Shown here: in pieces, positions 8,776 through 46,500 of the stretch
Position numbering within the stretch: position 1 is the stretch's first letter
How the letters are laid out: the number at the start of each line of letters is the position of its first letter
Origin: Gemmatimonadota bacterium
GTDB lineage: Bacteria; Gemmatimonadota; Gemmatimonadetes; Gemmatimonadales; GWC2-71-9
DNA: 64,000 bases
NCBI GenBank assembly: GCA_039587315.1
Contig: JBDHIS010000001.1
Coordinates: forward strand, 39 to 64,038
Direction of reading: 5' to 3'
Made by a program: the position numbers and the translations under genes
Notes under the pieces: generated by a model
The model's input: only the letters and a program-made list of their open reading frames with translations
What the model was told of the DNA's origin: nothing
Database searches by the model: none

Positions 8776-8777
8776 CA

Positions 8778-10907: not shown

Positions 10908-10919
10908 AGGGGGAGCGCG

Positions 10920-11291
10920 ATGGCCAGGATCCTCTTGGTCGAGGACAACGAAATGAACCGCGACATGTTGTCGCGGCGACTCGAGCGCAAGGGATTCGAG
11001 ATCACCATGGCCGTGGATGGGCGGGAAGGGGTCGAGATGGCCAAGGCGGGCGACTACGACCTCATTCTCATGGACATGAGCCTGCCTGAGATCGACGGCT
11101 GGGAGGCAACGCGGCAGCTGCGCGCAGCGCCCGACACCGAGCGCACGCCGATCATCGCTCTCACGGCGCACGCCATGGCAGGTGATCGGGAAAGGGCGCT
11201 CGAGGCCGGTTGCGACGACTACGACACGAAGCCGATCGAGCTGGATCGTCTGCTGTCCAAGATCAACGCCCTGCTGGAGAAGAACACGTGA
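10920..11291 (+). CDS. stand-alone response regulator receiver (CheY-like)
   Basis: GGGGGAG precedes the ATG. MARILLVEDNEMNR...LILMDMSLPEIDGWE...IIALTAHAM...YDTKPI gives a complete receiver motif set with no output domain. Confidence 0.9.
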   Translation: MARILLVEDNEMNRDMLSRRLERKGFEITMAVDGREGVEMAKAGDYDLILMDMSLPEIDGWEATRQLRAAPDTERTPIIALTAHAMAGDRERALEAGCDDYDTKPIELDRLLSKINALLEKNT

Positions 11292-31821: not shown

Positions 31822-34088
31822 GGCAGCTCACTCTCGCAATCGCTGCGCTCGGCGTCCTTTCCGCGGGAGTCGAGGCCCAGCAGCCTACAGTGTCGCCCGC
31901 GCTGCAGCCGCTGTTCGAGCGGGATACCGTAGTCACTACCTGGTTCTTCGGTGCCCGCGATCGCTCGCTCGGCGAGATCAGGGCGGCCGTCTCTGCACTG
32001 GGCGGCGTGGTTCGCCGCTCGAGCCGCTGGCTTCACGCTGTCTCGGCGGTCGTTTCCACCGCCGACCTTCAGCGCGCGAGCACCAGTAGCGACTTCCGCC
32101 ATCTCCAGCCGGTGGCGCGCTTCAGCGGCAGGCCGGAGAAGCCGAGGGCGGTTCCCTACTCCGCACTTCCGGCGCTAGCGGCCGCCAACTTCGACTCGCT
32201 TTATGGCCCCTCCGCTGCGCCGCTGCGCCAGCTCGACCTGTTCCCGCTGGCAGACCAGGGGGTACGGGGCAGTGGCGTGACGATCGGCGTGCTGGATACC
32301 GGATTCGAAACCGGAAACGCGGCGTTCGATTCGGCCACCGTCATCGCGCAGTGGGACTTCGTGTTCGACGACTCCACGGTGGCAAACGAGCCGGCCGACA
32401 CCTTCACCGCCTCGCGGCACGGCACGGCTACCTGGTCGCTGCTCGGGGCCAATCTGCCCACGCAGATCATCGGCGTCGCCCCCGAAGCCGACTACATACT
32501 CCTCAAGACCGAGGACGTCCGCTCCGAGACCCGCGTCGAGGAGGACAACTGGGTGGCAGCGCTCGAGTGGGCCGACTCGATCGGGGTGGATGTGATCTCC
32601 TCGAGCGTGGGCTACCTCGATTTCGACGGCGGGTTCAGCTACGCGCCCGAGGACCTGAACGGCGACGTGGCGGTCACGACCGTGGCGGCCGACTCCGCCG
32701 CCGCGCGGGGCATCCTCGTCGTTGCGGCCATGGGCAACAACGGCCCGGGCTTCCGCACCATGATCACACCGGCGGACGGCGATTCCGTTCTCTCGGCGGG
32801 AGCGGTGGACACGCTCGGCGTCGTCGCAGGGTTCAGCTCACGCGGCCCGACCGCCGACGGGCGCTTCAAGCCCGACCTCATGGCAGCCGGCGTCGACGTG
32901 TTCGTGGTCGATCCGCTCTCGGGCTCGGGGTTCTCGCGGTTGGACGGGACATCGTTCTCGACCCCGCTCCTGGCCGGAGCCGCCGCCCTGGTGCGGCAGC
33001 TACAGCCCACACTCGCGCCGATTGACGTGATTGACGCGCTGCGGCGCACGGGGGACAATCGCGCCGCGCCGGACTCCACGCGCGGGTGGGGCATACCCGA
33101 TGGTGCTGCGGCAGCGTACTTCCCGCGCGGCATCGTCGTTACCAACCCCGAGGACACTCTGCTCAAGGCGGTAACCCCTACGTTCGTCTGGAACGTACCG
33201 GGGGTCCCACCGCTGGCGCGGCCGCTCAGCTACAGGCTGAGGATCGCAACCGACACTACGTTCTCGTTCGTAGCGCTCGACACCGTCATTCCCGACACGG
33301 TGTTCACCTGGGCCGAGACCCTGCGCCCCGACGAACGGTTCGTCTTTGCAATCTCGGTGATGTCCGTCGACTCGGTCTCATTCACGACGCTGCCGAGCGA
33401 CGAGTTCATCGTGCCGGATTGGGCGACCCTGCTCACGCTCAACGATCCCGAGGGTACAACGACCAGGGAGCTGCGACCCCTGTTCGAGTGGTCGTCACCC
33501 ATGGTCGTCGCACCGCCGGGCCCGTTCGTGTACGACGTCGCGATCTACCGCGAAGACAACGGCCAACTGGAGCTGGAGCAGAGCGGGCTCACCGAGACCG
33601 AGTACCGGCCACCGCGCGATCTCGAGTTCAACACGCCGTACCACTGGGAGGTCGTCTCTCACCTCGAGGGTGACAGCACCATCACCCGGAGCGAAGGCAC
33701 GTTCATCATCATAGACGATTCCGTGCCATCGGTGACGCTGCTGTTCCAGAACTTCCCGAACCCGTTTCCGAGCCCGACGACCGGGGGCCGCACCACCTGC
33801 ATCTGGTTCGACCTGGCGACGGAAGGGGCGACCACCGTCGACATCCTCGACATCAGGGGCCACGTGGTACGCAACCTGGTGCCGGGAGAGTCGTTTCCCG
33901 CGATCCTCGTGCCGGGTCGCTACGGGCGACCCGCAAACGGGGTGTCCGGAAGCTGCGACCCGGATCTCGAGTGGGATGGAACGGCAGCGGACGGCTCGCA
34001 GGTGCCCCAGGGAGTCTACGTCGTGCGGCTCAATGCCCCTGACGGGAATCAGTTCAAGCGGATCGTCTTCATGGGCTCGGACTTCTGA
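31818..34088 (+). CDS. secreted subtilisin-family (S8) serine peptidase with C-terminal beta-sandwich/sorting-like domain
   Basis: TTG 31818 overlaps the smc TGA and gives signal peptide (M)RQLTLAIAALGVLSAGVEAQ. Catalytic triad contexts GVLDTGF, SRHGTATWS and DGTSFSTPLLAG. The tail FQNFPNPFPS...GVYVVRLNAPDGNQFKRIVFMG resembles FlgD-Ig/T9SS-type C-terminal domains. Confidence 0.82.
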   Translation: MRQLTLAIAALGVLSAGVEAQQPTVSPALQPLFERDTVVTTWFFGARDRSLGEIRAAVSALGGVVRRSSRWLHAVSAVVSTADLQRASTSSDFRHLQPVARFSGRPEKPRAVPYSALPALAAANFDSLYGPSAAPLRQLDLFPLADQGVRGSGVTIGVLDTGFETGNAAFDSATVIAQWDFVFDDSTVANEPADTFTASRHGTATWSLLGANLPTQIIGVAPEADYILLKTEDVRSETRVEEDNWVAALEWADSIGVDVISSSVGYLDFDGGFSYAPEDLNGDVAVTTVAADSAAARGILVVAAMGNNGPGFRTMITPADGDSVLSAGAVDTLGVVAGFSSRGPTADGRFKPDLMAAGVDVFVVDPLSGSGFSRLDGTSFSTPLLAGAAALVRQLQPTLAPIDVIDALRRTGDNRAAPDSTRGWGIPDGAAAAYFPRGIVVTNPEDTLLKAVTPTFVWNVPGVPPLARPLSYRLRIATDTTFSFVALDTVIPDTVFTWAETLRPDERFVFAISVMSVDSVSFTTLPSDEFIVPDWATLLTLNDPEGTTTRELRPLFEWSSPMVVAPPGPFVYDVAIYREDNGQLELEQSGLTETEYRPPRDLEFNTPYHWEVVSHLEGDSTITRSEGTFIIIDDSVPSVTLLFQNFPNPFPSPTTGGRTTCIWFDLATEGATTVDILDIRGHVVRNLVPGESFPAILVPGRYGRPANGVSGSCDPDLEWDGTAADGSQVPQGVYVVRLNAPDGNQFKRIVFMGSDF

Positions 34089-34089
34089 G

Positions 34090-34854
34090 ATGGAGCTCAC
34101 GGTGCTGGGAAGCGGTACCGTTGCGCCCACCTCGGAGCGCACGGCCGCCGCTCACTGGGTGGACGCGCCGCCCGTCAAGCTGCTGCTCGACTGCGGAGCC
34201 GGAGCGCTGCACCGCGCGGCCACGTTTGGCGTACCATGGGCTGAGGCGACGCACGTCGCGATCACGCACTTCCACCAGGACCATTGGGGGGAGCTGGGCA
34301 TGTTCCTGTTCGCCTGCAAGTGGGGGATAGAGCCGCCCCGTTCGGAACCGCTCGTGCTGATCGGCCCCGCCGGCTTTCGAACGCGCCTAACGCTGCTGGC
34401 GGGCGCCTACGGGGACTGGGTGCTGGAGCCGGGATTCCCGCTCGAGATCCGGGAGATATCTCCCGGCGAGTCGGTGGCGTTGGCAGCAGGCGTCGAGCTC
34501 GAAGCCTGCAAGACGCCGCATACGCCCGAGAGCGTGGCCTATGGCGTCAGGACCGGCGGCCTCCGGCTGGTGTACACCGGAGATACGGGGCCCAGCGAGG
34601 AGCTGGCAAAGTGGGCGGACGGATGCGACCTGCTGCTGGCGGAGTGCTCGCTACCCGATGAACGCGCCTTGGAGGTACATTTAACGCCTTCGCAGGCGGG
34701 GGCGTTGGCGCGCGGCGCCAATGCCCGCCGCCTTGTTTTGACCCACTTCTATCCGGTGTTCGGGCAGACGGATCCGGCCACCGTGGCCCGCAGTGAGTTC
34801 GACGGAGAGATCGTGGCTGCCACGGACGGAGACCGCTTTACCGTAGGGGAATAG
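34090..34854 (+). CDS. MBL-fold metallo-hydrolase (RNase Z/BN-like)
   Basis: MELTVLGSGT...LLLDCGAG...ITHFHQDHWGEL (HxHxDH). Confidence 0.8.
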   Translation: MELTVLGSGTVAPTSERTAAAHWVDAPPVKLLLDCGAGALHRAATFGVPWAEATHVAITHFHQDHWGELGMFLFACKWGIEPPRSEPLVLIGPAGFRTRLTLLAGAYGDWVLEPGFPLEIREISPGESVALAAGVELEACKTPHTPESVAYGVRTGGLRLVYTGDTGPSEELAKWADGCDLLLAECSLPDERALEVHLTPSQAGALARGANARRLVLTHFYPVFGQTDPATVARSEFDGEIVAATDGDRFTVGE

Positions 34855-34860
34855 CTGGTC

Positions 34861-35904
34861 ATGCTGGTTGTGATGAAGCACGGCGCAAGCACCGAAGAGG
34901 TGCAGCGCGTAGTCGAGAAGATCGAGGAGCTCGGATACGATGCCCGTCCCATCCCGGGGCAGCAGCGTACCGCAATAGGCCTGGTCGGCAACGACGGCCG
35001 GGTGGACGCCTCGCGCCTCGCGGCGCTCTCGGGCGTCAAAGAGATCATCCACGTCACACAGCCCTACAAACAGGTCTCCCGCGAGTGGAAGGAAGAGCAG
35101 ACGGTCGTCCGGCTCCCGGGCGGCCTCGCCATCGGGGACGACGACGTCGTGGTCATCGCGGGCCCCTGCTCAGTCGAGTCGGAGAAGCAGATCGTCGCCG
35201 CCGCAGAGGCGGTCCGGGCCGCCGGCGCCTCCATGCTGCGCGGCGGCGCATTCAAGCCGCGCACGTCTCCCTACTCGTTCCAGGGCCTCGGCGAAGCGGG
35301 ACTGAAGTTGCTGGCCAAGGCGCGTGACGAGACCGGGCTGCTGGTGGTGACCGAAGCGCTGGACCCCGACGGCGTGGATCTAGTCGCTGAGTACGCCGAC
35401 GTGATTCAGATCGGCGCGCGCAACATGCAGAACTTCTCGCTGCTCAAGCGCGCCGGACGCTCCGGCAAGCCGGTGCTGCTCAAGCGCGGCATCGCAGCCA
35501 CAGTCACGGAGCTGCTGCTCTCGGCTGAGTACCTGCTGGCGGAGGGCAACCACGAAGTGATCCTGTGCGAGCGCGGCGTGCGAGGATTCGACAGCGCAAC
35601 ACGCAACGTGTTCGACATAACGGCGATTCCGCTCGTGCGCACCCTGTCGCACCTCCCGATCGTGGCCGACCCGAGCCACGCGACGGGACGCCGCGAGTTG
35701 GTGACGCCAATGGCGCGCGCGGCGGTGGCCGCCGGCGCCGACGGCGTCATGATCGAGGTGCACCCCAAGCCGGAAGAGGCTCTCTCGGACGGGATGCAGA
35801 GCCTCGACGCCGAGCAGTTCGAGCAGCTGATGCGCGAGATAAGGGTGATCACCGACGCCATCGGTCGCGGAGTGGCCGAGCCGCTGCCCGCAGTGAGTGC
35901 GTGA
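34861..35904 (+). CDS. aroF: 3-deoxy-7-phosphoheptulonate (DAHP) synthase, type I-beta with N-terminal regulatory domain
   Basis: N-terminal ferredoxin-like [26 protein letters not shown]. Catalytic [40 protein letters not shown] and DPSH. Confidence 0.9.
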
Positions 35905-36551
35905 GAGCGCTAACACTTTCCCTACTCTTCCTGTCGGTCGCCGCACCCCGGCTGCAGGCGCAGGACGCGGCGACGACGCTGGCCCGCGCCGAGCAGGCCT
36001 ACCGCAACCTCACCACATTCACGGCCGACTTCGAGCAGACTCTGGTCAACCCGATGCTGGGCGGGCCGGAAACGACGAGCGGCGCACTGTTCCTCGAGCC
36101 TCCGGGGCGCTTCGCCATGCGCTGGACCGACCCCGACGGGGAGCGCGTGGTGGCGGACGGCGAGTGGCTCTGGGCCTTCGCACCGAGCAGCGTGCCCGAC
36201 CAGGTCATCCGGCAACCGATCCCCCAGTCGGGCCCCTCCTCACCGCAGCTCATGGCCCAGTTCGTGGACCGACCCGAGGAGCGCTACGTGGCCACCTACG
36301 TAGGGGAGGTTCTCGTAAAGGGCGAGCTAACCGACGTCCTGCACCTCGCTCCGAGGCGCGAGGGCCTTCCGTTCAGCGAGGCGGAGATCGCGGTGGGACG
36401 GCGCGACGGGTTGCTGCGCCGCATCACCGTCACGGAGGTGTCGGGGCAGAAGCGCACACTCGTGCTGTCGGGCATAGGCGTGAACGTGAGCATTCCGGAG
36501 TCCGAGTTGGAGTTCGAGGTGCCGAGCGGAGTCAGGATCGTCACGCCCTAG
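35901..36551 (+). CDS. outer-membrane lipoprotein carrier protein LolA-like
   Basis: GTG 35901 overlaps the aroF TGA. Signal peptide (M)[42 protein letters not shown]...[15 protein letters not shown] is LolA-like. Confidence 0.7.
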
Positions 36552-36627: not shown

Positions 36628-37470
36628 ATGAGTCTGACTCGTCCAACTCTTACATTGACCGTTCTGGCGCTCTCGCTTGTCGCGCTGCCGCTCGCCGCCC
36701 AGGAGCAGACCCGCGAGTCCATGGCACTGGACAACACCGCGGCGCAGTGGTCGTTCCAGTTGGCCTACCAGGCAATGCCCGAGTACCGGCAGGACACGCT
36801 GGCGATCGGCGAGCCGCGCCCCGAGGGCAACAAGGGCTTCTTCCAGTTCCGCATGGTGGCGCCAATTTCACTCGGAAAGGTCACTATCCTGCCGCGCCTC
36901 ACCATGCGCGTGGCCGAGAACAGCGCCGGCGAGTGGGGTTTCTCTCCGACCGACCTGTTCGCGCTCATAGTGCCGTTCCAGTGGTCCACCGGCCGCGCGG
37001 GCATCGGCCCCGACGTGGTCTTCCCCGGCAGCGAGAAGGTAGGGAGCAACGAGTGGGCGTACGGCCTGGCGGGCGCGGTGATACAGCGGTTCTTCAACGA
37101 GAAGATGATGGTAGGGCTGCTGCTGCAGCAGACCTGGGGCCGGCGCGACGTGATTGATCTGGGCCAGCCCATTCCGACCGACAGCACCGAAACCGGAGCC
37201 AACCCGCTCATCATCAACCCCTTCATCAACGTCCAGCTCGGGAAGGGCTGGTACGCCGGCACCAACGACCTCCAGGCGCAGTACAGCTGGGAGTTCGGCG
37301 GCTGGAAGGTCCCGGTGGGTGCCCGTCTCGGTTACGTGCTGGTGCGCCCCAGTAACTCCTGGAACTTCTACGTAGAGTACGCGACGGAATTCGCCACCGA
37401 CGACTGGCCGGGAGCGGTGGCAAAGCACAAGATCCGGCTCAACGTGTCGTTCACGATTCCGGTCGGGTAG
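36628..37470 (+). CDS. putative outer-membrane beta-barrel/transport protein
   Basis: Signal peptide MSLTRPTLTLTVLALSLVALPLAAQ. Alternating amphipathic strands and a C-terminal ...IRLNVSFTIPVG. The family is not identified. Confidence 0.5.
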   Translation: MSLTRPTLTLTVLALSLVALPLAAQEQTRESMALDNTAAQWSFQLAYQAMPEYRQDTLAIGEPRPEGNKGFFQFRMVAPISLGKVTILPRLTMRVAENSAGEWGFSPTDLFALIVPFQWSTGRAGIGPDVVFPGSEKVGSNEWAYGLAGAVIQRFFNEKMMVGLLLQQTWGRRDVIDLGQPIPTDSTETGANPLIINPFINVQLGKGWYAGTNDLQAQYSWEFGGWKVPVGARLGYVLVRPSNSWNFYVEYATEFATDDWPGAVAKHKIRLNVSFTIPVG

Positions 37471-37546
37471 CGATCGCCGACCGCAGCCTCTACATACGCA
37501 GATCTGCCGACGCGCAACGAATCGGCTCAACAGTCACCGGAGCAAC

Positions 37547-39475
37547 TTGATGAGACCCTCCAAGCTCGCAACGACCCTCAGCCTGCTCACGATACTCGGG
37601 ACCGGCGTTTCCTTCGCCCAGGATCCGGTGCCTCCCCCGGAGGCTCTCGAGGGAGCCTTCCCGGCGCAGAAGCACTTCTCCCCCTACGCCGGGCGCAACT
37701 TCCCGACCCAGGTGTACTGGGGCGACACGCACCTGCACACGGGCATGTCCATGGACGCGGGCGCCTTCGGCGCGCGGCTCAGCCCGGAGGACGCGTACCG
37801 CTTCGCGCGCGGCGAGGAGCTCACTTCCTCCACCGGCCTGCAAGTGAGGCTGGGCCGGCCGCTCGACTTCCTCGTCGTGGCCGACCACTCCGACAACATG
37901 GGCTTCTTCCCGCGTCTCTACGCGGGCGAGCCTGACATGCTCGCCGATCCCACTGGCCGCCGCTGGTACGACATGATTCAGGAGGGTGGTCAGGCCGGAG
38001 TGCAGGTAGCCATAGAGGTCATTCAGGCGTTTTCGGACAACGAGTTCCCTGAGGCCCTGGCATCCCTTCCCGGAACCCCCGCCTATCGCTCGGCATGGGA
38101 AGAAGCGATCGACGCAGCCGAGAAGTACAATGATCCGGGGGAGTTCACCGCGTTCATCGGCTACGAGTGGACCTCCAACACGCGCGGCGCCAACCTGCAC
38201 CGTGTAGTGATCTTCCGTGACGACGGCCACCGGGCCGGCATGGTGGAGCCGTACACGACCCTCAGGCCGCTTGGCAGTGACAACCCGCGCGACTTGTGGC
38301 GCCAGCTGCAGGCGTACGAAGACAAGACCGGCGGCCAGATCCTCGCGCTGGCGCACAACGGCAATCTGAGCAACGGCATCATGTTCCCGATGCTGGACAC
38401 GTTCACCGGCATGGCGTTCGACCGCGAGTACGCGGAGACCCGTGCCAAGTGGGAGCCCCTCTACGAGGCCACCCAGATCAAGGGCGACGGCGAGGCACAC
38501 CCCTACCTGTCGCCGACCGACGAGTTCGCCGACTACGAAACGTGGGACCAGGGCAATCTCGACTTGAGCGAAGCCAAAGAGAACGAGATGCTGCAGTACG
38601 AGTACGCCCGGACGGGACTCCAGATCGGGCTCCAGCTCGAGCGGCAGCTCGGAGTCAACCCGTACAAGTTCGGCATGATCGGCTCGACCGACAGTCACAC
38701 TGGCCTCGCCACCGCTGAGGAGGAGAACTTCTTCGGCAAACACTCCGGCACCGAGCCGAGCCCCGAGCGCTACAAGCACCCAATGGCCCAGCTGGGTGAC
38801 AAGAAGTACGAGAGCTGGGACATGGTCGGCTCGGGCTACGCGGCAGTGTGGGCCACCGAAAACACGCGCGAAGCGATCTTCGACGCCATGATGCGCCGGG
38901 AGACCTACGCCACCACAGGGCCGCGCATGCTGGTGCGCTTCTTCGGGGGCTGGGAGTTCACGGCAGAGCACGCGCAGAGCAGGCTTCCGGCCAACGTCGG
39001 CTACACCAAGGGCGTGCCGATGGGCGGGGACCTGCCCGCGAGATCGGGCAATGGGGCGCCGACGTTCCTAGTGGCCGCGCTCAAGGATCCGTTCTCGGGC
39101 AACCTGGACCGGATCCAGATCGTGAAGGGCTGGCTGGACTCGCGGGGCGAGCGCCACGAGAAGGTTTATGACGTGGCGTGGTCTGGCGATCGGCAGATCG
39201 GACGCGACGGCAAGCTGCCGCCTGTAGGCAACACTGTGGACGTCGCCAACGCGACCTGGGCCAACACGATCGGTGCGCCGGAGCTGATCACGGTGTGGAC
39301 CGACCCCGACTTCGACGCGTCGCAGTCCGCCGTGTACTACGCGCGCGTGATCGAGATCCCCACTCCGCGCTGGACGGCGTACGAGGCAGCACGGTTCAAC
39401 ATCACGCTGCCATCGGAAGTTCCGATGATCACTCAGGAGCGGGCCTACACCTCGCCGATCTGGTATACTCCGTAG
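37547..39475 (+). CDS. secreted DUF3604-like (PHP-like metal-dependent) protein
   Basis: Signal peptide MMRPSKLATTLSLLTILGTGVSFAQ. YWGDTHLHTGMSMDAG, VVADHSDN, FIGYEWTS and GSTDSHTG match the DUF3604 pattern as I remember it. Confidence 0.75.
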   Translation: MMRPSKLATTLSLLTILGTGVSFAQDPVPPPEALEGAFPAQKHFSPYAGRNFPTQVYWGDTHLHTGMSMDAGAFGARLSPEDAYRFARGEELTSSTGLQVRLGRPLDFLVVADHSDNMGFFPRLYAGEPDMLADPTGRRWYDMIQEGGQAGVQVAIEVIQAFSDNEFPEALASLPGTPAYRSAWEEAIDAAEKYNDPGEFTAFIGYEWTSNTRGANLHRVVIFRDDGHRAGMVEPYTTLRPLGSDNPRDLWRQLQAYEDKTGGQILALAHNGNLSNGIMFPMLDTFTGMAFDREYAETRAKWEPLYEATQIKGDGEAHPYLSPTDEFADYETWDQGNLDLSEAKENEMLQYEYARTGLQIGLQLERQLGVNPYKFGMIGSTDSHTGLATAEEENFFGKHSGTEPSPERYKHPMAQLGDKKYESWDMVGSGYAAVWATENTREAIFDAMMRRETYATTGPRMLVRFFGGWEFTAEHAQSRLPANVGYTKGVPMGGDLPARSGNGAPTFLVAALKDPFSGNLDRIQIVKGWLDSRGERHEKVYDVAWSGDRQIGRDGKLPPVGNTVDVANATWANTIGAPELITVWTDPDFDASQSAVYYARVIEIPTPRWTAYEAARFNITLPSEVPMITQERAYTSPIWYTP

Positions 39476-39496
39476 GCCGGAGACGGCACCGAGACC

Positions 39497-39532
39497 ACCA
39501 CGCCACCGGCCTTCACGGGTCGGTGGCGTGGT
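39497..39532 (+). other. 12-bp perfect hairpin between the DUF3604-like and PPIase-like genes
   Basis: ACCACGCCACCG (39497-39508) pairs with CGGTGGCGTGGT (39521-39532) across a 12-nt loop. No U-tract follows. It could be an attenuator, an RNA processing site or an mRNA stability element. Confidence 0.35.
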
Positions 39533-39555
39533 CCACATCCGAGACTGTGAGACAG

Positions 39556-40452
39556 ATGCGCACCACCATCGCAACCTCGCTTCGCGAGCCCTTGGTGCAG
39601 TTCGTCGCTCTAGGGGTCGCCCTGTTCGCCCTCTATGGAATGCTGGGAGGCGGGGACTCTGACGCGACCGACGAAAAGCGCGTCGACGTGACTCAGGCCG
39701 AGATCGGCTGGCTGAGCGAGCGTTGGAGCCGTCAGTGGCAGCGTCCCCCGACCGAAGCCGAGCTGCGTGGTCTGGTGGACGACTACGTGCGCGAGGAGGT
39801 GCTGTACCGCGAGGCCCTTGGCATGGGCCTCGACCGCGACGATGCGGTCGTTAGACGTCGTATGGTGCAAAAGCTGGAGCTCCTCACCGAGGCCGTGCAG
39901 GCGCCGGCCACCGAACAGCAGCTGCAGGCCCACTTCCAGGAGAACCTGGACCGGTACATCATCCCCGAGGCGCGCAGCTTCTCGCACATCTACTTCAACG
40001 TTGATCAGCGCGGCGATGCGGTGTTCTCGGACGCGGAGCGAGTGCTGGATCGGTTGCGCGCCCTTTCCCAGCAGCCGTCCCGTGCGCCCGAGCGCGGCGA
40101 CCGCTTCCTGCTGCAGTACGATTACCGGCTGCACACCGAGGCCGAGGTGGCGCGCCTCTTCGGGAGCCGCTTTGCAGAGGCCCTGTTCGAGGTCGAGCCA
40201 GATTCGTGGCAGGGTCCGATCCAGTCGGGTTACGGCTTGCACCTGGTGTACGTGTCGGACGTGGGCGCAGAGGCAGTGCCGGAATTCCAGCAGGTGCGAA
40301 ACCGCGTTCTGGTGGATTACGAGGTCAAACAGCGCAACGATGCCAAGGAAGCGCTGTATCGAGGCCTCTCCGAGAGCTATGAGGTGACGATCGACGAAGA
40401 GGCCGTGCGCGCGGCTTCGATTCAAACCGAGTCCGGCGGGGCGAGCCGCTGA
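39556..40452 (+). CDS. membrane-anchored PpiC-type peptidyl-prolyl isomerase-like protein
   Basis: ATG 39556. N-terminal TM helix LVQFVALGVALFALYGML. LRGLVDDYVREEVLYREALGMGLDRDD and WQGPIQSGYGLHLVYV are typical of Rotamase_2-type proteins. Confidence 0.65.
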   Translation: MRTTIATSLREPLVQFVALGVALFALYGMLGGGDSDATDEKRVDVTQAEIGWLSERWSRQWQRPPTEAELRGLVDDYVREEVLYREALGMGLDRDDAVVRRRMVQKLELLTEAVQAPATEQQLQAHFQENLDRYIIPEARSFSHIYFNVDQRGDAVFSDAERVLDRLRALSQQPSRAPERGDRFLLQYDYRLHTEAEVARLFGSRFAEALFEVEPDSWQGPIQSGYGLHLVYVSDVGAEAVPEFQQVRNRVLVDYEVKQRNDAKEALYRGLSESYEVTIDEEAVRAASIQTESGGASR

Positions 40453-40466
40453 GCACGCGCCTCTGT

Positions 40467-42668
40467 TTGTGGACGCTCGCCCTCGGTGTGGCTCTCGCCG
40501 CAACGCCCGCGCGAGCCGACGACGTGCGACCCGTTCAGGTGCATATCGTCGAGCGAGAGCCGGGCAACTTCCTGGTTCAGTGGCTCGTGCCACAGCTGCT
40601 GCCGATCCGTGCAATGCCGAGTCCGGTGCTGCCGGCCCATTGCCGCCCGGAGGGCGAGCGGGTCGTGCTCGAGCGGCCGGGTGCGTGGCTCAACCGGCAG
40701 GCATATCGCTGCTCGGGAGGCCTGTACGGACAAGAGCTCGGCATCAGCTACCCCATCTCAAACCCCGGGCTCACCACCGTCATCCGCCTCGACCTGCTTT
40801 CGGGCGAGCGGTTCGCCCACGCGCTCAATCCCACGGATGATTCATGGCAGGTGCCGGAAGAGAACCTGGGTGCGGTGGAGTCCTGGCTGCGGGACGCCCG
40901 CGGCGCAGTCATGGAGGGAGCGCAGCACATAGCGGGCCACTGGGTGCACGTGGCATTCCTGCTGGCCCTGGTACTGCTGGGGGCATCGGTCGGAACCGTC
41001 CGACTCGTAACCGCTTTCGCGGTGGGACAGGTCGCGGCAGTCGCTGTGACCACGATGCTGGGCCGTCAATTCGATCCCATGGCGGCGGAGGTTTGCGTCG
41101 CCATCGCCGTGGCGCTGCTAGCGAGGGAGTCGCTGCGCCCAACACCCGACTCGAGGCGAGTCACCGGACTTGCCGCCGGCGCCGGCCTGTTCCACGGGCT
41201 CGCCTTAGCCTGGCTGCTTCCGGGAGGTGCCGTTGCGGCGGGCGATTCCGCTTCGTTGTGGGCCGTCCTCGTCCTCGTTCTGGGGATGGACGCCGCACTC
41301 CTGGTGTTGGCAGCAGTTGCCCTTTGGCTGGGTCGGATCATCGAGCGGCAGTGGCCGTCGGGAAAGCCGCGGCGTGTGATCACCTACGTCGTGGGCGCGA
41401 CGGCCGTGACCGCAGCGTTGGCTCTCGCGTTCGGCGAGCGGGCAGCCGACTCGCAGGTCGCGGCGCCGAGCACGAGACTGCCCGGCATGGCGGGCGCCGC
41501 CCCGGTCGGGGCGCAGGCGTCGCGGCGACTCGCGCCGCGGGCCCCGAGCTCTCCGGTCCAGAGCTATCTGGCTGTGGAGCCGTTCGAGGTGCGGCACGAG
41601 GTGCTGGTTCGCGTGCAGGACGTGGCACGCGAGATCGGCATCAGCGCCGCAGCGAGCGGCTATGTAGAGATCAGCGTGCAGGACGTCGTCGTTCGCCGCA
41701 TCGCCGACTACGTCGGCTCGCACTCGATGGTCGAGATAGATGGAGAGCCAGCGAACGGCATCGTGGATCGCGTGAGCTTCATGGCCGTGGATGCCCAGGG
41801 CGTGTTGCCGCGGCAGAGCCCGGTGCGTGAGTCTCTCGACGAGGCATTCGTTGGAGTGACCGTGGTCTACCTGACTCCCGGCATGCCCGGCGAAGTCGTG
41901 CTTGCCTGGGACGTGCTGGCTGAAGGCGCGCCACCGATTCCCGCTACCGTGATAGATCCGGAGTCGTCTCGTACCATGGCGCTCACCGTCGAGGCGCCCG
42001 CGCTACGCTGGACGAACGAGCTACTCGAGGATCCCATCCCAACGATTACAGCGGTTGCCGTCGAGCCGCCGACGCTGCCTTTACCAATGCTCTCGCTGGC
42101 GCTGTTTGCGCTGGCCATCGCTCTAGCGGTAACCACCGTGCGTGGTGGCAGGAATGCGACCGCATTCGCTGCGGTGCGCGTGACCCTCGCTCTTGCACTC
42201 GCCGCCGCTACGGTCGCGCAGGTCGCGATCGCGCTGCCAGCTTCTATCGCCCGGACTACCTCCTCCGATCAGGCAAGGCGTGTACTGGCAAGCGTGCTCC
42301 CGAACGTGTACCGGGCGCTCGACTTCCGCGACGAGGGCACGGCGTACGATCGCCTCGCGCTGACCGTCACTGGTGAAACGCTGAGCGACATCTACCTTGA
42401 GCACCGCCGCTCGCTCGAGCTGGAGGAGAGAGGCGGTGCGCGCGCGCGGGTGGACGCCGTCGAAGTGCAGGACGTGCGGGACGTGCGACCCACCGAGGAC
42501 GGCGGCTTCGAGGCCACTGCCTCGTGGACCGTCGGCGGCAGCGTGACGCACTTCGGGCACCGGCACTTTCGGCAGAACCGTTACGACACGCGCGCCGTAG
42601 TCGTACCGGTGGACGGCAACTGGAAGATTCGCTCGATCGAGATTCTCGAGCAGGAGCGTGTGCGGTAA
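40467..42668 (+). CDS. HupE/UreJ-like polytopic membrane protein with a long additional C-terminal region
   Basis: Signal-like N-terminus. GAQHIAGHWVHVAFLLALVLL matches the GxxHIxxGxxHxxFLLxL motif of HupE/UreJ_2-type proteins. About 5-6 TM helices, then a soluble segment, two more TM helices and a roughly 150-aa C-terminal domain. Confidence 0.6.
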   Translation: MWTLALGVALAATPARADDVRPVQVHIVEREPGNFLVQWLVPQLLPIRAMPSPVLPAHCRPEGERVVLERPGAWLNRQAYRCSGGLYGQELGISYPISNPGLTTVIRLDLLSGERFAHALNPTDDSWQVPEENLGAVESWLRDARGAVMEGAQHIAGHWVHVAFLLALVLLGASVGTVRLVTAFAVGQVAAVAVTTMLGRQFDPMAAEVCVAIAVALLARESLRPTPDSRRVTGLAAGAGLFHGLALAWLLPGGAVAAGDSASLWAVLVLVLGMDAALLVLAAVALWLGRIIERQWPSGKPRRVITYVVGATAVTAALALAFGERAADSQVAAPSTRLPGMAGAAPVGAQASRRLAPRAPSSPVQSYLAVEPFEVRHEVLVRVQDVAREIGISAAASGYVEISVQDVVVRRIADYVGSHSMVEIDGEPANGIVDRVSFMAVDAQGVLPRQSPVRESLDEAFVGVTVVYLTPGMPGEVVLAWDVLAEGAPPIPATVIDPESSRTMALTVEAPALRWTNELLEDPIPTITAVAVEPPTLPLPMLSLALFALAIALAVTTVRGGRNATAFAAVRVTLALALAAATVAQVAIALPASIARTTSSDQARRVLASVLPNVYRALDFRDEGTAYDRLALTVTGETLSDIYLEHRRSLELEERGGARARVDAVEVQDVRDVRPTEDGGFEATASWTVGGSVTHFGHRHFRQNRYDTRAVVVPVDGNWKIRSIEILEQERVR

Positions 42669-42693
42669 CGGACGCACGCAGCGAGGACGGACC

Positions 42694-43227
42694 ATGACCG
42701 AACCCGGTACCCAGACTCAGACTGCCGTTCCCAAGGGCCGCCTCGTGGTAGGCGGCACGATCTTCGTGGCGGGGTTCCTGGCCCCGGCACTGATCCCTCT
42801 CGTCGCGGCATCCTCCCTGCCAACCGGCTGGAAGGCGACACTCTCCGGTCTGCTGGCCCTCGGCATCCCCGAACTGGGAATGCTGGTGGCAGTGGCCGTG
42901 ATGGGAAAGCCTGGCTTCGCGTTCCTGAAGGCGAGGCTGGGCCGCTTCCTGAAGCAGTACGGTCCGCCGGCCACGGTGAGCCCCGTCCGGTACCGCATCG
43001 GTCTCGTAATGTTCACTCTCCCGCTGTTTGTCGCCTGGGCGACGCCGTATGCGCCCTACCTGCTGCACGGGCTCGATCTCAACCAGCTTCCCGTTGCCAT
43101 AGGTGGAGACGTGATGATGCTGGCCAGCCTCATCGTGCTGGGCGGCGACTTCTGGGACAAGCTGCGGTCACTGTTCGTACGTGAATCGAGAGCGCGCTTT
43201 CCTGGCGGTGCCCAGTCGAGCCTCTGA
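42694..43227 (+). CDS. small membrane protein (transporter-suffix-domain-like)
   Basis: ATG 42694 follows GAGGACGG. Four predicted TM helices. The N-terminal KGRLVVGGTIFVAGFLAPALIPLV...GIPELGMLVAVAVMGKPGFAFLKARL pattern fits this family. Confidence 0.5.
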   Translation: MTEPGTQTQTAVPKGRLVVGGTIFVAGFLAPALIPLVAASSLPTGWKATLSGLLALGIPELGMLVAVAVMGKPGFAFLKARLGRFLKQYGPPATVSPVRYRIGLVMFTLPLFVAWATPYAPYLLHGLDLNQLPVAIGGDVMMLASLIVLGGDFWDKLRSLFVRESRARFPGGAQSSL

Positions 43228-43242
43228 AGTGGAGAGAACGCA

Positions 43243-43893
43243 ATGACGACACCACAGCACGACCCCTCGCGACCCCACAAGGAGGAGCGCGCGACGCTGC
43301 AGCTCAGCCGCCTGGAGCGCCTGAGCGACGTCGTGTACGCACTTGTGCTGCTGCGCATCTTCCTGCTCATCCCGCGGCCGGGCGAGGGCGACTGGCATTG
43401 GGACGCCATCGGCCCCTTCGTGCTGGACAACCGGATGACGTTCGTGGCGGTCGCGGTCGCGCTCGCCGTCACGATCATCTACTGGCTGCAGAACAACGTC
43501 CTGCTGAGCCACCTCGAGCGGACCGATGCGCGCCACACATCGCTGATGATCGTACAGCTCTTCTGTCTCTTGATCTTCCTCTACGCCATCGGCCTCGGGA
43601 TCGCGCTGGGAGCGTCGCCCGGCGCGAGGGCATTCGAGAGCATCACGGCTGCCCTGCTCGGAATCTCGGGCGGCTGGGCGTGGCAGTACGCCATCAAGAA
43701 CCGCCGGTTGCTGAGGCCCGACGTAACGGACGATGAGGCTCGCGCGCTGGCACACCGCATCACCGCCGAGCCCATGACCGCGCTGGTCACCATTCCATTG
43801 GCCTACGTGGGTCCCATCGTGTGGGAGCTCTCCTGGCTGAGCTATCCGTTGTGGGTCGCGCTGCTTAGGCGGCGCGGGCGGCGCACTGCGTGA
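43243..43893 (+). CDS. TMEM175/DUF1211-like potassium-channel family membrane protein
   Basis: RLERLSDVVYALVLLRIF resembles the RxxxFSDGVFAIAITLL signature helix. Six TM-like segments. Confidence 0.6.
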   Translation: MTTPQHDPSRPHKEERATLQLSRLERLSDVVYALVLLRIFLLIPRPGEGDWHWDAIGPFVLDNRMTFVAVAVALAVTIIYWLQNNVLLSHLERTDARHTSLMIVQLFCLLIFLYAIGLGIALGASPGARAFESITAALLGISGGWAWQYAIKNRRLLRPDVTDDEARALAHRITAEPMTALVTIPLAYVGPIVWELSWLSYPLWVALLRRRGRRTA

Positions 43894-43933: not shown

Positions 43934-44056
43934 AGCCTGGCGAGTTGCCGCCCGGCACACATTGAGACTGATCCTGGCCTCTGGCGCACGGGTCCAGCGG
44001 GGGCCGGATTTTGACGCCGTTTCGCTGTTGTACCAGTATCGCTGGTGAGGGTCGTG

Positions 44057-44884
44057 ATGATCGTGAGGAGAATGCGATACGCCGCTTGCGTTGCATTGGC
44101 CGCTGCTGCCCTTGGCTGCGCGCCGCCTGCCGACCAAACGGAGCACGCTACTCTCCAGCGCACCGCGCACTGGAGCTACGAGGGTGAAGATGGGCCTGCG
44201 CATTGGGCCGAGCTCACCCCCGACTATGCCGCTTGTGCGGAGGGTCGGCGCCAGTCTCCCATCGACCTCGCCGACGCGGAATTCATCGCCGGCCCCGCGG
44301 CCCAGATGGAGTACCAGCCCGCAAGCCTGCGCGCCGCACGCAACGAGCATGCCGTGGACCTGGTGGACAACGGTCATACCATCCAGTTCACGTACGACGA
44401 GGGTAGCACGCTGCAACTGGACGGCACGGACTACGAGCTGCTGCAGTTCCACATCCACGTCCCCAGCGAGCACACGGTCGAGGGGCGCCGCTTCCCAATG
44501 GAGGTGCACCTCGTACACCAGAGCGCCTCGGGTGAGTTTGCGGTGGTAGGTGTCGTGATCGAAGAGGGGGAGAGCGATCCAGGTGTATACCCGCTCGTCG
44601 AGAACCTGCCGGTCACCCCCGGCGCCAGCGTGCGCCTCGAGAACGTCAGGGTGGACATCGACGAACTGCTCCCCCTCGACCCCCGGTACTACCGCTACGA
44701 AGGCTCGCTCACGACGCCCCCCTGCAATGAGGGAGTGCACTGGCTCGTGATGTTCGAGCCGGCCGAGCTCACGCCGGAGCACATCGAGCGGTTCCGGGCG
44801 CTTCTTGACGGTACGAACCGGCCGCTGCAGCCGCGACACGACCGCAGGGTCGCAATTCAGATCGGAGCCGACGCCGACTCATGA
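44057..44884 (+). CDS. alpha-class carbonic anhydrase, probable lipoprotein
   Basis: HWSYEGEDGPAHW, QSPIDL, LQFHIHVPSEHTVEGRRFPMEVHLVH (alpha-CA signature) and GSLTTPPCNEGVHW. LAAAALGC is a lipobox. The start is uncertain among 44045, 44057 and 44072. Confidence 0.88.
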   Translation: MIVRRMRYAACVALAAAALGCAPPADQTEHATLQRTAHWSYEGEDGPAHWAELTPDYAACAEGRRQSPIDLADAEFIAGPAAQMEYQPASLRAARNEHAVDLVDNGHTIQFTYDEGSTLQLDGTDYELLQFHIHVPSEHTVEGRRFPMEVHLVHQSASGEFAVVGVVIEEGESDPGVYPLVENLPVTPGASVRLENVRVDIDELLPLDPRYYRYEGSLTTPPCNEGVHWLVMFEPAELTPEHIERFRALLDGTNRPLQPRHDRRVAIQIGADADS

Positions 44885-46500
44885 CGCGCACCGGCGCGAT
44901 CGTCCTCGCACTTGCCGCAGCCGCCTCCACCCCGCTGCGGGCGCAAGAGTCCGTACCGGTCATTGACACCATCATCATCCACACGGCGGACGTGTTCACG
45001 CCGCAAGAAATGGAAGGAAAGGGCTTTTTCCGCTTCCTTAACTCGATACACATCATAACGCGGGAGAACGTGATCCGGGACGAGCTGCTGTTCCGGGAGG
45101 GCGACCCGTTCGACGAGACGGTGTTCCGCGAGACGGCGCGCAACCTGCGCAAGCGGGAGATCTTCAAACGGGTGGACATAGACACGACCCGCATCGACGG
45201 CAAGTTCGCAGTCATCGTGGACACGCAGGACGGCCAAAGCCTCAAGCCGAACTTCAGCTTCTCGGTGGCGACCGACGGCAGCTGGACGGGTCGCCTCGGA
45301 GTCACCGAGAGCAACCTGCTGGGAACGGGAGCTCTCGCCAGCATCGTCTACGTGAAGGAGATCGAGCGGCACGGTCCGCAGCTGGCCGCCAACTTCCGGC
45401 GCCTGTTCGGATCACAGATCCGCGCCAAGGGCATCGTGAGCCTCTGGAACGACGGCACCGACGGCTGGTGGCGCCTGGGAGACCCGTTCTATTCGAACGA
45501 AGACAGGTACAGCGTGGAATACGACGGCGAGGCCTCGGGCCGCCGTGTGCTCGAATACCGCATAGACAGTACAGGATTCAGGGACACGACCTTCTATCGG
45601 CGTGATGCCCTTATCAACCGGTTCATGGGTGTCACGGCTCCAATCGCGGAGTCCAAACGCTACCTGCGCCTGGGCCTCGACGCCTGGCTGAGGCAGGAGA
45701 AATTCATCTTGCTGCAGGACTCCGGGCAGTCAGTGCCCGACAGCCTCTACGCGGCCTTCGGTCTGTGGGCCGAGCTGAAGTCCGCGCGGTTCCAGACGGT
45801 GCGCTACTTCAACGGGTTCATCAACGAGGACATTGATCAGAGCCCCCGGGTGAAGCTGTTCGTCAACCTGGCGCCCGCCAACCTGGGCTACGAGCGCACA
45901 GGCATCGTCCCCGGACTCGACGCATCCTACGGGACCGGGGGGGCCAGGAGCTTCTTCGTTGTGAATCTGAAGGCCCACGGCCTGTTCACCGATGCGGGGC
46001 TGGACTCCGGACGTGTGGAAGCGAACCTGACGCTGGGCACTCTGATCGCGAGGCGGCACTCGACGGCCATCTACATCCTGGCCGGAGTGCAGGAAAACCC
46101 GCCGCCCGGGCAGCAGTTCTCACTCGGCTTCAACACGCCGCCGCGCAGTTGGGAGGCCAACTCGTTCGTCGGGACCCGCGCCCTGTGGGGTACTCTGGAA
46201 CATCGCTGGTTCGCGGTGGACGACTTTCTGAAGCTGTTCGCGGTGGGGCTCGCGGCGTTCGTAGACTACGGGGGCGCCTGGTACCCGGACCAGAAGCCGC
46301 GCTTCGGGGGAGACTTCGGGATCGGGTTGCGGATGGGAAGCGCGCTCGGCACGGTTGCGCGCACGGGCCGCATAGACCTCGGCTACCGTTTCGGTCAGGG
46401 GTCGGACGTTGGCAGCCGCCTGGTGCTCTCGATCGGCGGATCGTTTGTGTTCCCGTGGAATCCGAAGGCGACGGACCTAGTACAGCGGGAGGGGGCCTGA
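44881..46500 (+). CDS. Omp85/BamA-TamA family outer-membrane protein (POTRA + barrel)
   Basis: ATGA overlap with the carbonic anhydrase gene. Signal peptide MTRTGAIVLALAAAASTPLRAQ. POTRA-like ITRENVIRDELLFREGDPFDETVFRETARNLRKREIFKRVDIDT. C-terminal barrel ending ...LSIGGSFVFPW. Confidence 0.72.
   Translation: MTRTGAIVLALAAAASTPLRAQESVPVIDTIIIHTADVFTPQEMEGKGFFRFLNSIHIITRENVIRDELLFREGDPFDETVFRETARNLRKREIFKRVDIDTTRIDGKFAVIVDTQDGQSLKPNFSFSVATDGSWTGRLGVTESNLLGTGALASIVYVKEIERHGPQLAANFRRLFGSQIRAKGIVSLWNDGTDGWWRLGDPFYSNEDRYSVEYDGEASGRRVLEYRIDSTGFRDTTFYRRDALINRFMGVTAPIAESKRYLRLGLDAWLRQEKFILLQDSGQSVPDSLYAAFGLWAELKSARFQTVRYFNGFINEDIDQSPRVKLFVNLAPANLGYERTGIVPGLDASYGTGGARSFFVVNLKAHGLFTDAGLDSGRVEANLTLGTLIARRHSTAIYILAGVQENPPPGQQFSLGFNTPPRSWEANSFVGTRALWGTLEHRWFAVDDFLKLFAVGLAAFVDYGGAWYPDQKPRFGGDFGIGLRMGSALGTVARTGRIDLGYRFGQGSDVGSRLVLSIGGSFVFPWNPKATDLVQREGA

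Follow-up and report, generated by a model that had tools for sequence, protein, structure and literature searches.

What does a secreted protein of the DUF3604 family have to do with a foldase-like membrane protein and a metal permease? The question is raised by a contig of a Gemmatimonadota bacterium (JBDHIS010000001.1, assembly GCA_039587315.1), of which a stretch of 64,000 nucleotides, here called the window, was analyzed. The nearest relatives of the window are Gemmatimonadota metagenome-assembled genomes of marine sediment origin. Six open reading frames (ORFs) on the + strand fill positions 36628-43893, with spacers of 76, 80, 14, -11, and 15 nt, in a genome of 65-68% G+C. An original prediction, made from the letters alone, had read these six short-spaced, same-strand genes as one envelope module, and every ORF was found where it had been placed. 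The conserved unit is smaller: a three-gene operon, here called the triad, encoding the DUF3604 protein, a parvulin-like (PpiC/PrsA-like) protein, and a HupE/UreJ-2 permease (Table 1). The remaining barrel-like, small membrane, and TMEM175-like genes are lineage-specific additions. The earlier assignments to DUF3604, Rotamase, and HupE hold, with profile scores that clear Pfam's own cut-offs. Given its adjacency across about nine phyla and its joint induction in a cultured Sinorhizobium, the triad is a real but uncharacterized system.

Conservation was assessed on 80 genome loci (L001-L080) fetched around DUF3604 homologs 63-86% identical to the window protein, with every ORF clustered; those flanked by 3 kb or more on each side were taken as informative (n = 43), and phyla were assigned from record titles. 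Further L numbers include metagenome loci, plasmid and isolate records, and Escherichia coli K-12 (L161). The parvulin-like gene was present in 30 of the 43 informative loci, in 29 of them together with a HupE_UreJ_2 gene, so the neighborhood that had been proposed is strongly kept outside this genome. Triad loci span Gemmatimonadota, Pseudomonadota (Alpha-, Beta-, and Gamma-), Planctomycetota, Bacteroidota, Nitrospirota, Acidobacteriota, Campylobacterota, Desulfobacterota, and Ca. Eisenbacteria, and operon spacers measure 8-100 nt across many phyla. The three extra genes are missing from nearly all other loci and also from the closest relative, L001, which reads LolA, DUF3604, parvulin-like, permease, and Omp85.

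The reciprocal set comprised 80 metagenome loci around parvulin-like homologs. The permease gene adjoins the parvulin-like gene in all 42 of those with at least 1.2 kb downstream. A strict criterion (flanks of 3.5 kb or more on each side) gave DUF3604 in 7 of 11 loci, a looser one in 30 of 43. These finds include DUF3604 branches merely 40-45% identical to the window protein. The order parvulin-like to permease is kept in 91 of 101 loci, and the stop codon of the former overlaps a start codon of the latter (-4 or -1) in 62 of 83, the usual mark of coupled translation. Metagenome loci in which the pair lacks DUF3604 were inspected for an alternative recurrent partner, and none emerged.

Plasmids gave a further view of the same association. 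When 72,556 plasmids were searched for both proteins, DUF3604 was found in 81 and the parvulin-like protein in 77, with genus counts (DUF3604/parvulin-like) of 36/36 in Rhizobium, 25/25 in Sinorhizobium, 3/3 in Ensifer, and 2/2 in Pseudoalteromonas. Among the listed records, 49 of 60 parvulin-like plasmids were also among the 69 carrying DUF3604, the genes always lying within ~3 kb of each other. The Prokaryotic Genome Annotation Pipeline (PGAP) names [quoted passage not shown] recur in Rhizobium leguminosarum WSM1325 and bv. viciae 248, two Pseudoalteromonas strains, and Ruegeria sp. THAF33.

In Sinorhizobium fredii NGR234, the DUF3604 gene (NGR_b04980, 505,007-506,944 of pNGR234b) belongs to a run of b05020, b05010 (parvulin-like), b05000 (the permease, HupE2, with a 4-nt overlap with b05010), b04990, b04980, and b04970 (DUF1254+DUF1214). 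RNA-seq data show the six genes b05020-b04970 rising 2.7-3.6-fold with 0.5 mM calcium in yeast extract-mannitol (YEM) medium at early stationary phase, and 1.8-2.6-fold in a second comparison of the same study, with the divergent neighbor b05030 at 0.97-fold with calcium (PMC10970691). The authors of that study made no connection among these genes (PMC10970691). The joint rise constitutes evidence of co-transcription in a cultured organism under one inducing cue. In two sediment metatranscriptomes, hundreds of contigs at least 85% identical to DUF3604 (37505-39611) were retrieved, with a word depth of up to 883 versus at most 8 on the neighboring genes. Because DUF3604 alone is conserved enough for cross-species read mapping, this pile-up is not a sign of operon polarity; it shows that close DUF3604 relatives are transcribed in situ and abundant in these two RNA libraries.

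The 12-bp hairpin that had been noticed between the DUF3604 and parvulin-like genes is present. It consists of 12 perfect Watson-Crick pairs, extended to 16 pairs with a 4-nt loop in the minimum-free-energy fold, and the spacer fold (91 nt) reaches -43.8 kcal/mol (z-score -3.45). A consensus scan did not return the hairpin as a terminator, and a T-run is absent after the stem. Strong hairpins of like kind follow the DUF3604 stop in L001, L025, L059, and L063 and are missing where the spacer measures 8-30 nt. The structure possibly stabilizes the mRNA or acts as an attenuator, setting the stoichiometry of enzyme to helpers.

The first member of the triad matches Pfam PF12228 over profile positions 2-591 of 591 (E 8.5e-248, 824 bits against a cut-off of 20.4). 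Its leader is a Sec-type signal peptide, MMRPSKLATTLSLLTILGTGVSFA, followed by QDP. The N-termini of all homologs read are of Sec or lipobox type, with a clear twin-arginine leader in none, which means that folding and the acquisition of any metal occur in the periplasm. The family comprises 12,526 clusters at 50% identity (family profile, E <=1e-3), and identity between phyla reaches 63-86%. When the window is compared with L012 (Burkholderiales), the enzyme is 77% identical, the parvulin-like protein 39%, and the permease 29%; since the helpers encoded in the same operon are far less identical, the high identity of DUF3604 reflects selection and not recent transfer. Of the 43 informative loci, 11 have two, sometimes three, DUF3604 paralogs in tandem or close together; their usual identity to the window protein is 56-65%. 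Loci with such paralogs are L005, L017, L021, L023, L026, L034, L039, L049, L051, L053, L055, and L064, with lipoprotein-type leaders on some copies (L021, L049).

Is DUF3604 a metal hydrolase? The original prediction had called it PHP-like on account of its His motifs, and GDTHLHT, ADHSDN, and STDSHT were indeed found in the translation. In an alignment of 51 representatives 32-52% identical to the window protein (A6), H62, H64, D70, D113-H114, E207, H218, H270, E303, E307, K312, E316, and D382-x-H384 are invariant or at least 90% conserved. The His and Asp residues of the three motifs are invariant or nearly so in this set. The ordered PHP ligand pattern HxH ... H/D ... E ... H ... H ... DxH is present as H62-x-H64, D113-H114, E207, H270, H318/E316, and D382-x-H384, with the same degree of conservation. 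Sub-threshold matches to CehA_McbA_metalo recur in 17 of 28 and 35 of 51 members (best E 2.6e-6, all far below the 80-bit cut-off), and the PRK07945 PHP-domain model is matched by 2 of 51; other families do not recur. DUF3604 thus shares with CehA/McbA (NF038032) and the PHP superfamily a weak similarity in 35 of 51 members and the HxH ... E ... H ... DxH pattern, and differs from them in being about twice as long, in a conserved C-terminal beta-rich region, in scores below 80 bits, and in lacking a Pfam PHP match. When aligned with E. coli YcdX by hhalign, it gives motif-length matches only (probability <5%): motif I, YFGDlHlHT versus YPVDLHMHT (YcdX H7/H9), and motif IV, STDSHT versus GSDSHT (YcdX D192/H194), in the correct order. 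From the motifs and the recurrent sub-threshold matches, and nothing beyond these, a remote kinship with PHP-like metal hydrolases is likely but unproven. Characterized PHP enzymes are mostly phosphoesterases; on that ground, and because sulfatase genes recur nearby, our guess for the activity is an ester hydrolase, most likely acting on phosphoesters.

The permease scores 44.9 bits with HupE_UreJ_2 (cut-off 24.5; aa 148-291), compared with 140-164 bits for unfused relatives. Its AlphaFold model, with a predicted local distance difference test (pLDDT) of 84 and a predicted template modeling score (pTM) of 0.74, divides it into the domains listed in Table 1, with the beta/alpha domain modeled at aa 364-540 and the NTF2-like domain at aa 600-731; conserved His/Asp/Glu residues lie in TM1, TM2, and TM4 of the six-helix part. 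Arg/Lys-rich loops TM1-2, TM3-4, and TM5-6 and inside the hairpin, read from the sequence, would place its three soluble domains in the periplasm, with an N-out/C-out topology. A Foldseek search with the model ranked 9gce first (E 1e-4, TM-score 0.55 on the target), a structure of Ang-1 from a HupE/UreJ-2 protein; the Zn-binding ZrgA and PA4063 came next, then NTF2-like folds. The N-terminal beta-sandwich is presumably the part aligned to 9gce. ZrgA (Vibrio cholerae) and PA4063 (Pseudomonas aeruginosa) share this beta-sandwich fold class and rank just behind Ang-1; they differ as soluble, stand-alone members of ABC-type zinc systems that lack a fused permease, and the alignments reach 9-12% identity.

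Anglerases, the proteins to which Ang-1 belongs, consist of beta-sandwich domains beginning with His1 after the signal peptide and fused to HupE/UreJ-2 permeases (Nat Commun 2025, PMC12537917). Ang domains bind Cu2+ or Ni2+ via a mono-histidine brace, and the authors propose metal capture for uptake; the gene neighbors they report are DUF4198, indigoidine-A-like, and PfkB, with DUF3604 and the peptidylprolyl isomerase (PPIase) unmentioned (PMC12537917). The earlier statement that no core member has an established function is therefore out of date for the permease type, whose N-terminal metal-binding domains were characterized in 2025 (PMC12537917). Like Ang-1/Ang-2 proteins (PDB 9GCE), the permeases linked to DUF3604 have a signal peptide, a periplasmic beta-sandwich, and a PF13795 transmembrane (TM) domain, and two thirds of them carry His right after the signal peptide. 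Unlike anglerases, they show no sequence match to 9GCE, which the permease family profile (A4) did not retrieve from all PDB sequences at E up to 10. They further differ in the Asp1 of the window copy and a third of the family, in the ~400 periplasmic residues added in the window copy, and in an obligate parvulin-like partner undescribed for anglerases. Judged by sequence, the N-terminal domain is not Ang-1 but a third, analogous type.

The typical DUF3604-linked permease is ~330 aa long and matures to HE(V/S)RP(A/G)YLEL. Across the family the mature N-terminus is His1 in 61 of 93 and Asp1 in 32 of 93 (ADEIRP, ADDVRP). A minority of the family forms a fused clade, which carries the extra periplasmic residues and in which the window permease groups with L001, L005, L041, and several metagenome loci. 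Domain hidden Markov models placed the N-terminal and TM parts in ~38 loci and the C-terminal half only in L001, L003, L005, L041, and, partly, L059. In alignment A2, H154, H161, H243, H695, H698, and H700 are invariant. The fused clade has exchanged His1 for Asp1, the Asp of the TM1 GxDH motif for Val, and the His of the TM2 AHS motif for Gln; it has kept H154, H161, E208/E221, and H243; and its C-terminal domain displays an invariant THFGHRHFRQNRY motif with an HxxHxH pattern. We infer that these changes amount to a re-tooled ligand set rather than decay. In L059 (3000-4112), a 371-aa protein joins an Asp1 beta-sandwich directly to the NTF2-like C-terminal domain, with no recognizable HupE/UreJ TM domain; the contig ends soon after. 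A Rhizobium Tim44-domain gene near the operon was considered as a free-standing counterpart of the C-terminal half, and no similarity was found. A second, canonical HupE_UreJ gene (PF04955) often lies in or beside the cluster, either ~340 aa long with an N-terminal extension or ~200-230 aa long on the opposite strand (L019 13981-15021; L055 15628-16812; L162 12078-12677; L166 5849-6544; L168 1105-1800).

The parvulin-like gene begins at an ATG (39556) after the DUF3604 stop, a start that yields the TM anchor; the mechanical ORF begins at 39178, inside DUF3604. In the product, a TM helix at the N-terminus is followed by a conserved helical segment and then the parvulin-like domain, and all but the anchor faces the periplasm. 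Rotamase_2 matches it with 46.4 bits (cut-off 27) and the NGR234 ortholog with 73.9 bits, the latter also touching Rotamase and Rotamase_3, and PDB similarity is weak and confined to SurA parvulin domains. In the family alignment (A5), the anchor reads REPLxHFLxxGxxLF and the helical stretch VREEVLYREAxAMGLDxDDxIIRRRLxQK, while G181, W218, and H229 of the parvulin-like domain are invariant and D182 nearly so; H229 would correspond to the second active-site His of canonical parvulins. Size and layout resemble PrsA-type foldases. The protein has in common with PrsA, PpiD, SurA, and the client helpers NifM (for NifH) and Lif (for lipase) a length of ~290 aa, a membrane anchor, a helical chaperone-like segment, a parvulin domain on the exported-protein side, a Rotamase_2 score over the cut-off with weak SurA and NifM matches, and a gene beside a secreted enzyme. 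It departs from them in being coupled genetically to a permease, not to a client, and in a first catalytic His that is H or Q. Following the permease, which it adjoins in 42 of 42 loci, mostly with overlapping codons, more tightly than DUF3604, the parvulin-like protein may be a partner of the permease and not simply the foldase of the enzyme.

How might the three proteins work together? Tentatively, and with a confidence that falls somewhat short of even, we read the triad as a periplasmic metallohydrolase, DUF3604, with a dedicated metal-handling and folding pair that loads the enzyme as it folds. DUF3604 would be a Sec-exported periplasmic hydrolase whose invariant His/Asp/Glu set suits a PHP-type multinuclear metal site. 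The parvulin/PrsA-like protein would be held in the inner membrane by its single N-terminal helix, with its body in the periplasm, and the six-helix HupE/UreJ-2 permease would present a mature N-terminus heading an anglerase-type periplasmic beta-sandwich. Made together, the two could form a single inner-membrane device handling a divalent metal at the periplasmic face, a view founded on their co-translation (overlapping codons in most genomes) and constant adjacency. This device would give the unfolded DUF3604 the right metal on leaving the Sec channel, the parvulin-like protein holding or folding the enzyme and the N-terminal domain of the permease passing metal between channel and enzyme. 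That the pair would act for the benefit of DUF3604 is suggested by the conserved operon, the co-translated pair, the export of the enzyme in unfolded form, and the metal-capture-type head. A more ambitious version, in which the pair is a periplasmic metallation machine that conveys a selected metal to the outer face for insertion into a Sec-exported enzyme during folding, its client DUF3604 being a widespread periplasmic PHP-type ester hydrolase of sediments, soils, and rhizobia, is unlikely to hold in full.

Two known arrangements could serve as precedents in logic. In E. coli, ycdX-ycdY-ycdZ encodes a PHP phosphatase (zinc), a maturation chaperone, and an inner-membrane protein (PMC4464133); like the triad, it combines in one operon a PHP-type multinuclear metal hydrolase, a maturation helper, and a membrane protein (PMC4464133), and the DUF3604 stretches that align to YcdX are the metal-binding motifs I and IV only. 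The systems differ in that YcdX is cytoplasmic and 245 aa long, compared with a periplasmic DUF3604 of 640 aa; YcdY belongs to the TorD/NarJ-type chaperones and not to the parvulins; YcdZ is no HupE protein; and hhalign gave a probability below 5%. In the E. coli K-12 record (L161), the operon spans 4880-6788 and resembles a small-scale analogue of the triad architecture. Hydrogenase and urease clusters likewise place the gene of a secondary metal permease, HupE/UreJ, beside the metalloenzyme it presumably serves, and the TM1 His signature and later HG motif of HupE/UreJ are kept in the window permease (H154, H161, H243). Unlike the Sec-exported DUF3604, the enzymes served there are cytoplasmic or assembled in the cytoplasm, and the triad permease is of PF13795, not PF04955, with an extra periplasmic domain.

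Several observations weigh against a dedicated loading pair. On the enzyme side, a Pfam PHP match to DUF3604 was sought and none was significant; the PDB gave no match to the single sequence or to the A3 and A6 profiles; and the AlphaFold model of DUF3604 (pLDDT 38), built on a shallow alignment of 12 sequences ~80% identical, was discarded. On the helper side, the window permease starts with DDVRP (Asp1), without His1 and two usual ligand positions, and might follow another mechanism or be no transporter. Of the parvulin catalytic residues, the first His is not conserved: the window has it (SHIYF), and many relatives have Q there. In about a third of loci, no DUF3604 lies within reach of the parvulin-like/permease pair, and on an Alisedimentitalea plasmid the pair sits behind an Opp/Nik-type ABC importer with DUF3604 not nearby; for a pair that can stand alone, a general uptake device fits as well as a dedicated maturase. 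Characterized HupE/UreJ proteins are importers into the cytoplasm that do not directly serve a periplasmic enzyme, and metal import alone does not explain how metal is supplied to an enzyme folding in the periplasm. As for regulation, the sole expression cue is calcium or apigenin in one organism. No riboswitch was found in an Rfam scan of the window and 18 related loci, and no Zur, Fur, PhoB, NikR, or Mur-like box was found upstream of the operons, in a consensus-sequence search of low power.

Two rivals fit nearly as well as the loading mechanism. In the first, DUF3604 would hydrolyze a metal-holding (or other nutrient-holding) periplasmic compound, such as a chelator in phosphorylated or esterified form; the freed metal would be caught by the His1/Asp1 domain and taken into the cytoplasm by HupE/UreJ-2, with the parvulin-like protein as a structural partner of the permease. 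We regard this as rather unlikely. It agrees with import as the known direction of HupE/UreJ, with the recurrence of sulfatases and other periplasmic hydrolases nearby, and with the second canonical HupE_UreJ gene in or beside many clusters. In Ruegeria sp. THAF33, same-strand TonB-ExbB-ExbD genes immediately precede the triad and point the same way, as does the secreted, possibly outer-membrane protein encoded upstream in the window and several Gemmatimonadota loci, and the published anglerase model is also one of capture followed by import (PMC12537917). Yet a TonB-dependent receptor or other uptake gene recurs nowhere across the 160 loci, and the 63-86% identity of DUF3604 speaks for a universal small substrate or a demanding active site and not for diverse chelators. 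The occurrence of the pair without DUF3604 counts against release and capture as well.

According to the second rival, the genes are co-regulated and mechanistically separate: the pair would be a general cytoplasmic metal importer, and DUF3604 would be wanted under the same condition, as happens when paralogs and uptake systems belong to one metal-starvation regulon. The lone pairs, with no other recurrent partner, suit this account, and ZrgA and PA4063, with their similar fold, are part of zinc-starvation operons. The DUF2092 and DUF1254/DUF1214 neighbors in NGR234 rise in parallel as well. Against it stand the near-complete co-occurrence and immediate adjacency on ~80 plasmids, the short-spaced operon structure kept in many phyla, and the failure to find a known metalloregulator box; we rate mere co-regulation as unlikely.

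That all six genes act together as a single envelope module, the full version of the original prediction, is now very improbable: the same-strand, short-spaced layout, the recurrence of barrel-like or TMEM175-like genes near DUF3604 in L002, L004, L007, L018, and L061, and a potassium channel gene downstream of the triad in R. leguminosarum 248 speak for it, but the comparative data largely refute it, as L001 keeps the triad and flanks without any extra gene, L004 and L007 have the barrel-like and TMEM175-like genes with sulfatases and DUF3604 and without the pair, and the small membrane protein has no homolog in the 80 genome loci (tblastn against L001-L080).

The additional genes are of limited distribution and uncertain family. 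Homologs of the 280-aa gene lie beside DUF3604 only in the Gemmatimonadota loci L002, L004, L007, and L061; its product has no Pfam, NCBIfam, or PDB sequence match and hence no barrel family match, and kinship with the Phenol_MetA_deg-type neighbors of other loci was rejected (hhalign probability 1%). The small membrane protein reaches 38.1 bits with NCBIfam suffix_2_RND (cut-off 40). Homologs of the TMEM175-like gene near DUF3604 are confined to the Gemmatimonadota loci L004, L007, and L018; its product scores a borderline 25.6 bits with Pfam TMEM175 (cut-off 25), reads RLERLSD at the TM1 RxxxFSD signature (L replacing F), and aligns weakly over its full length with 5vre and 6hd8, two structures of bacterial TMEM175. 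The "potassium channel family protein" of R. leguminosarum bv. viciae 248 (L165, 14718-15260), on the same strand, echoes this gene and may be a coincidence.

Table 1. Coordinates of the triad, its permease domains, and neighboring features (window positions unless a locus is named)
Feature	Position	Strand	Basis or remark
LolA-like periplasmic carrier, flank (start approximate)	35900-36551	+	Pfam LolA E 2.9e-16
Secreted 280-aa protein, family unassigned ("OM (outer-membrane) barrel-like" in the original prediction)	36628-37470	+	Lineage-specific accessory
DUF3604 protein, 641 aa from ATG (642 from TTG one codon upstream, 37547)	37550-39475	+	Core member 1
Intercistronic stem-loop, DUF3604/parvulin-like	39497-39532	+	Fold prediction
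Parvulin-like (PpiC/PrsA-like) membrane-anchored protein, 298 aa	39556-40452	+	Rotamase_2; core member 2
HupE/UreJ-2 permease, 733 aa, fused divergent form	40467-42668	+	HupE_UreJ_2; core member 3
Permease: signal peptide	aa 1-17	+	Sequence
Permease: periplasmic beta-sandwich	aa ~19-130 (40521-40856)	+	Model, strands aa 23-128
Permease: six-TM HupE/UreJ-2 domain	aa ~148-322 (40908-41432)	+	Model, helices 159-322
Permease: disordered linker	between six-TM and beta/alpha domains	+	Model
Permease: beta/alpha domain	aa 361-540 (41547-42086)	+	Model
Permease: TM hairpin, two helices	aa 541-579	+	Model
Permease: NTF2-like domain with invariant THFGHRHFRQNRY motif	aa 600-733 (42264-42665)	+	Model
Small membrane protein, 189 aa from GTG (alternative ATG 12 codons downstream)	42658-43227	+	Near-threshold suffix_2_RND
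TMEM175-like channel protein, 216 aa	43243-43893	+	Borderline Pfam TMEM175; lineage-specific accessory
Alpha-carbonic anhydrase, lipoprotein-type leader, flank	44045-44884	+	Pfam Carb_anhydrase E 4e-44
Omp85/BamA-like protein, flank	44881-46500	+	POTRA, BamA/TamA matches, sub-threshold
MBL-fold hydrolase	33976-34854		Ordinary flank
DAHP synthase with ferredoxin-like N-domain	34861-35904		Ordinary flank
DUF2520/Rossmann protein	47116-~48000	-	Ordinary flank
S41 C-terminal processing protease with PDZ domain	47940-49574	-	Ordinary flank
Alpha-carbonic anhydrase, other loci	L005 ~18917-19723; L034 12157-12690; L061 7755-8561; L067 1249-1917		

Two other gene types recur around DUF3604. Alpha-carbonic anhydrase, a periplasmic zinc enzyme, is encoded within 10 kb of DUF3604 in five loci of three phyla (Table 1), and in L034 its gene separates DUF3604 from the parvulin-like gene within the operon; the 80 metagenome loci yielded none. 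Its recurrence could hint at CO2/bicarbonate chemistry or a carbamylated lysine. Sulfatase genes (PF00884) lie beside DUF3604 in 10 of the 80 genome loci. Such loci include L004 (2577-4928 and 7911-9845), L007, L013, L016, L049, L061, L064, and L074, and the Ruegeria plasmid (L167, 12309-13973). In the Gemmatimonadota loci L004 and L007, sulfatases take the place of the parvulin-like/permease pair as neighbors.

On the Ruegeria sp. THAF33 plasmid, the ExbB-ExbD-ExbD-TonB run upstream of the triad spans 4269-6819, and an AraC regulator, a sulfatase-like gene, and a porin follow downstream. Recurrent neighbors in proteobacterial loci are DUF2092 periplasmic (LolA-like), TPR/adenylate-cyclase-type, and DUF1254+DUF1214 proteins, observed in L164 (NGR234 pNGR234b, 2959-12501), L165, L072, L062, L053, L045, and L068. 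Two such neighbors in NGR234, b05040 (DUF2092) and b04970 (DUF1254/1214), are raised by calcium in step with the triad.

The flanks had been described as keeping the whole stretch envelope-directed. Of their assignments, Pfam confirms those of alpha-carbonic anhydrase and the LolA-like protein (the latter reaching 90 bits with NCBIfam TIGR00547, cut-off 112); the POTRA/BamA matches of the Omp85-like protein are sub-threshold only. LolA-like homologs 60-61% identical lie upstream of DUF3604 in L001 and L002, and an Omp85-like homolog 64% identical lies 36 nt past the permease gene in L001. LolA and Omp85 belong to the chromosomal surroundings and not to the conserved unit. Farther upstream, a subtilisin-like S8 protease (31800-34088) has a C-terminal end (...LFQNFPNPFP...) that resembles a secretion-sorting tail; the Arg/Gly-rich N-terminus of its mechanical ORF, from 30867, is spurious. 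Just beyond the Omp85-like gene, a secreted 190-aa protein (46506-47078, - strand) contains a BLH/DSP-phosphatase-like domain (PF04273, E 1.8e-13) with an HCGSATR P-loop motif. A tRNA (902-972) is the sole Rfam match within the window.

Taken singly, the parts of the triad are of known kinds (a PHP-like hydrolase, a parvulin, and a HupE/UreJ-2 permease that bears a capture domain), and operons that join an enzyme to a helper and a metal permease are a known design as well. In the literature searched, no description was found of the fixed triad, of a parvulin-like protein paired obligately with the permease, of the split between His1 and Asp1, or of the fused form of the window, and DUF3604 was mentioned once, incidentally. 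With its fixed helper pair, one of a permease type first described in 2025, DUF3604 offers a concrete and testable entry to a widespread orphan enzyme, and cultured hosts of the triad exist in S. fredii NGR234 (NGR_b04980-b05010), R. leguminosarum, Pseudoalteromonas, and Ruegeria. If uptake proves the correct reading, the triad would represent a new metal or nutrient acquisition route; if maturation does, it would bear on how exported enzymes get the correct metal in the periplasm, without cytoplasmic folding.

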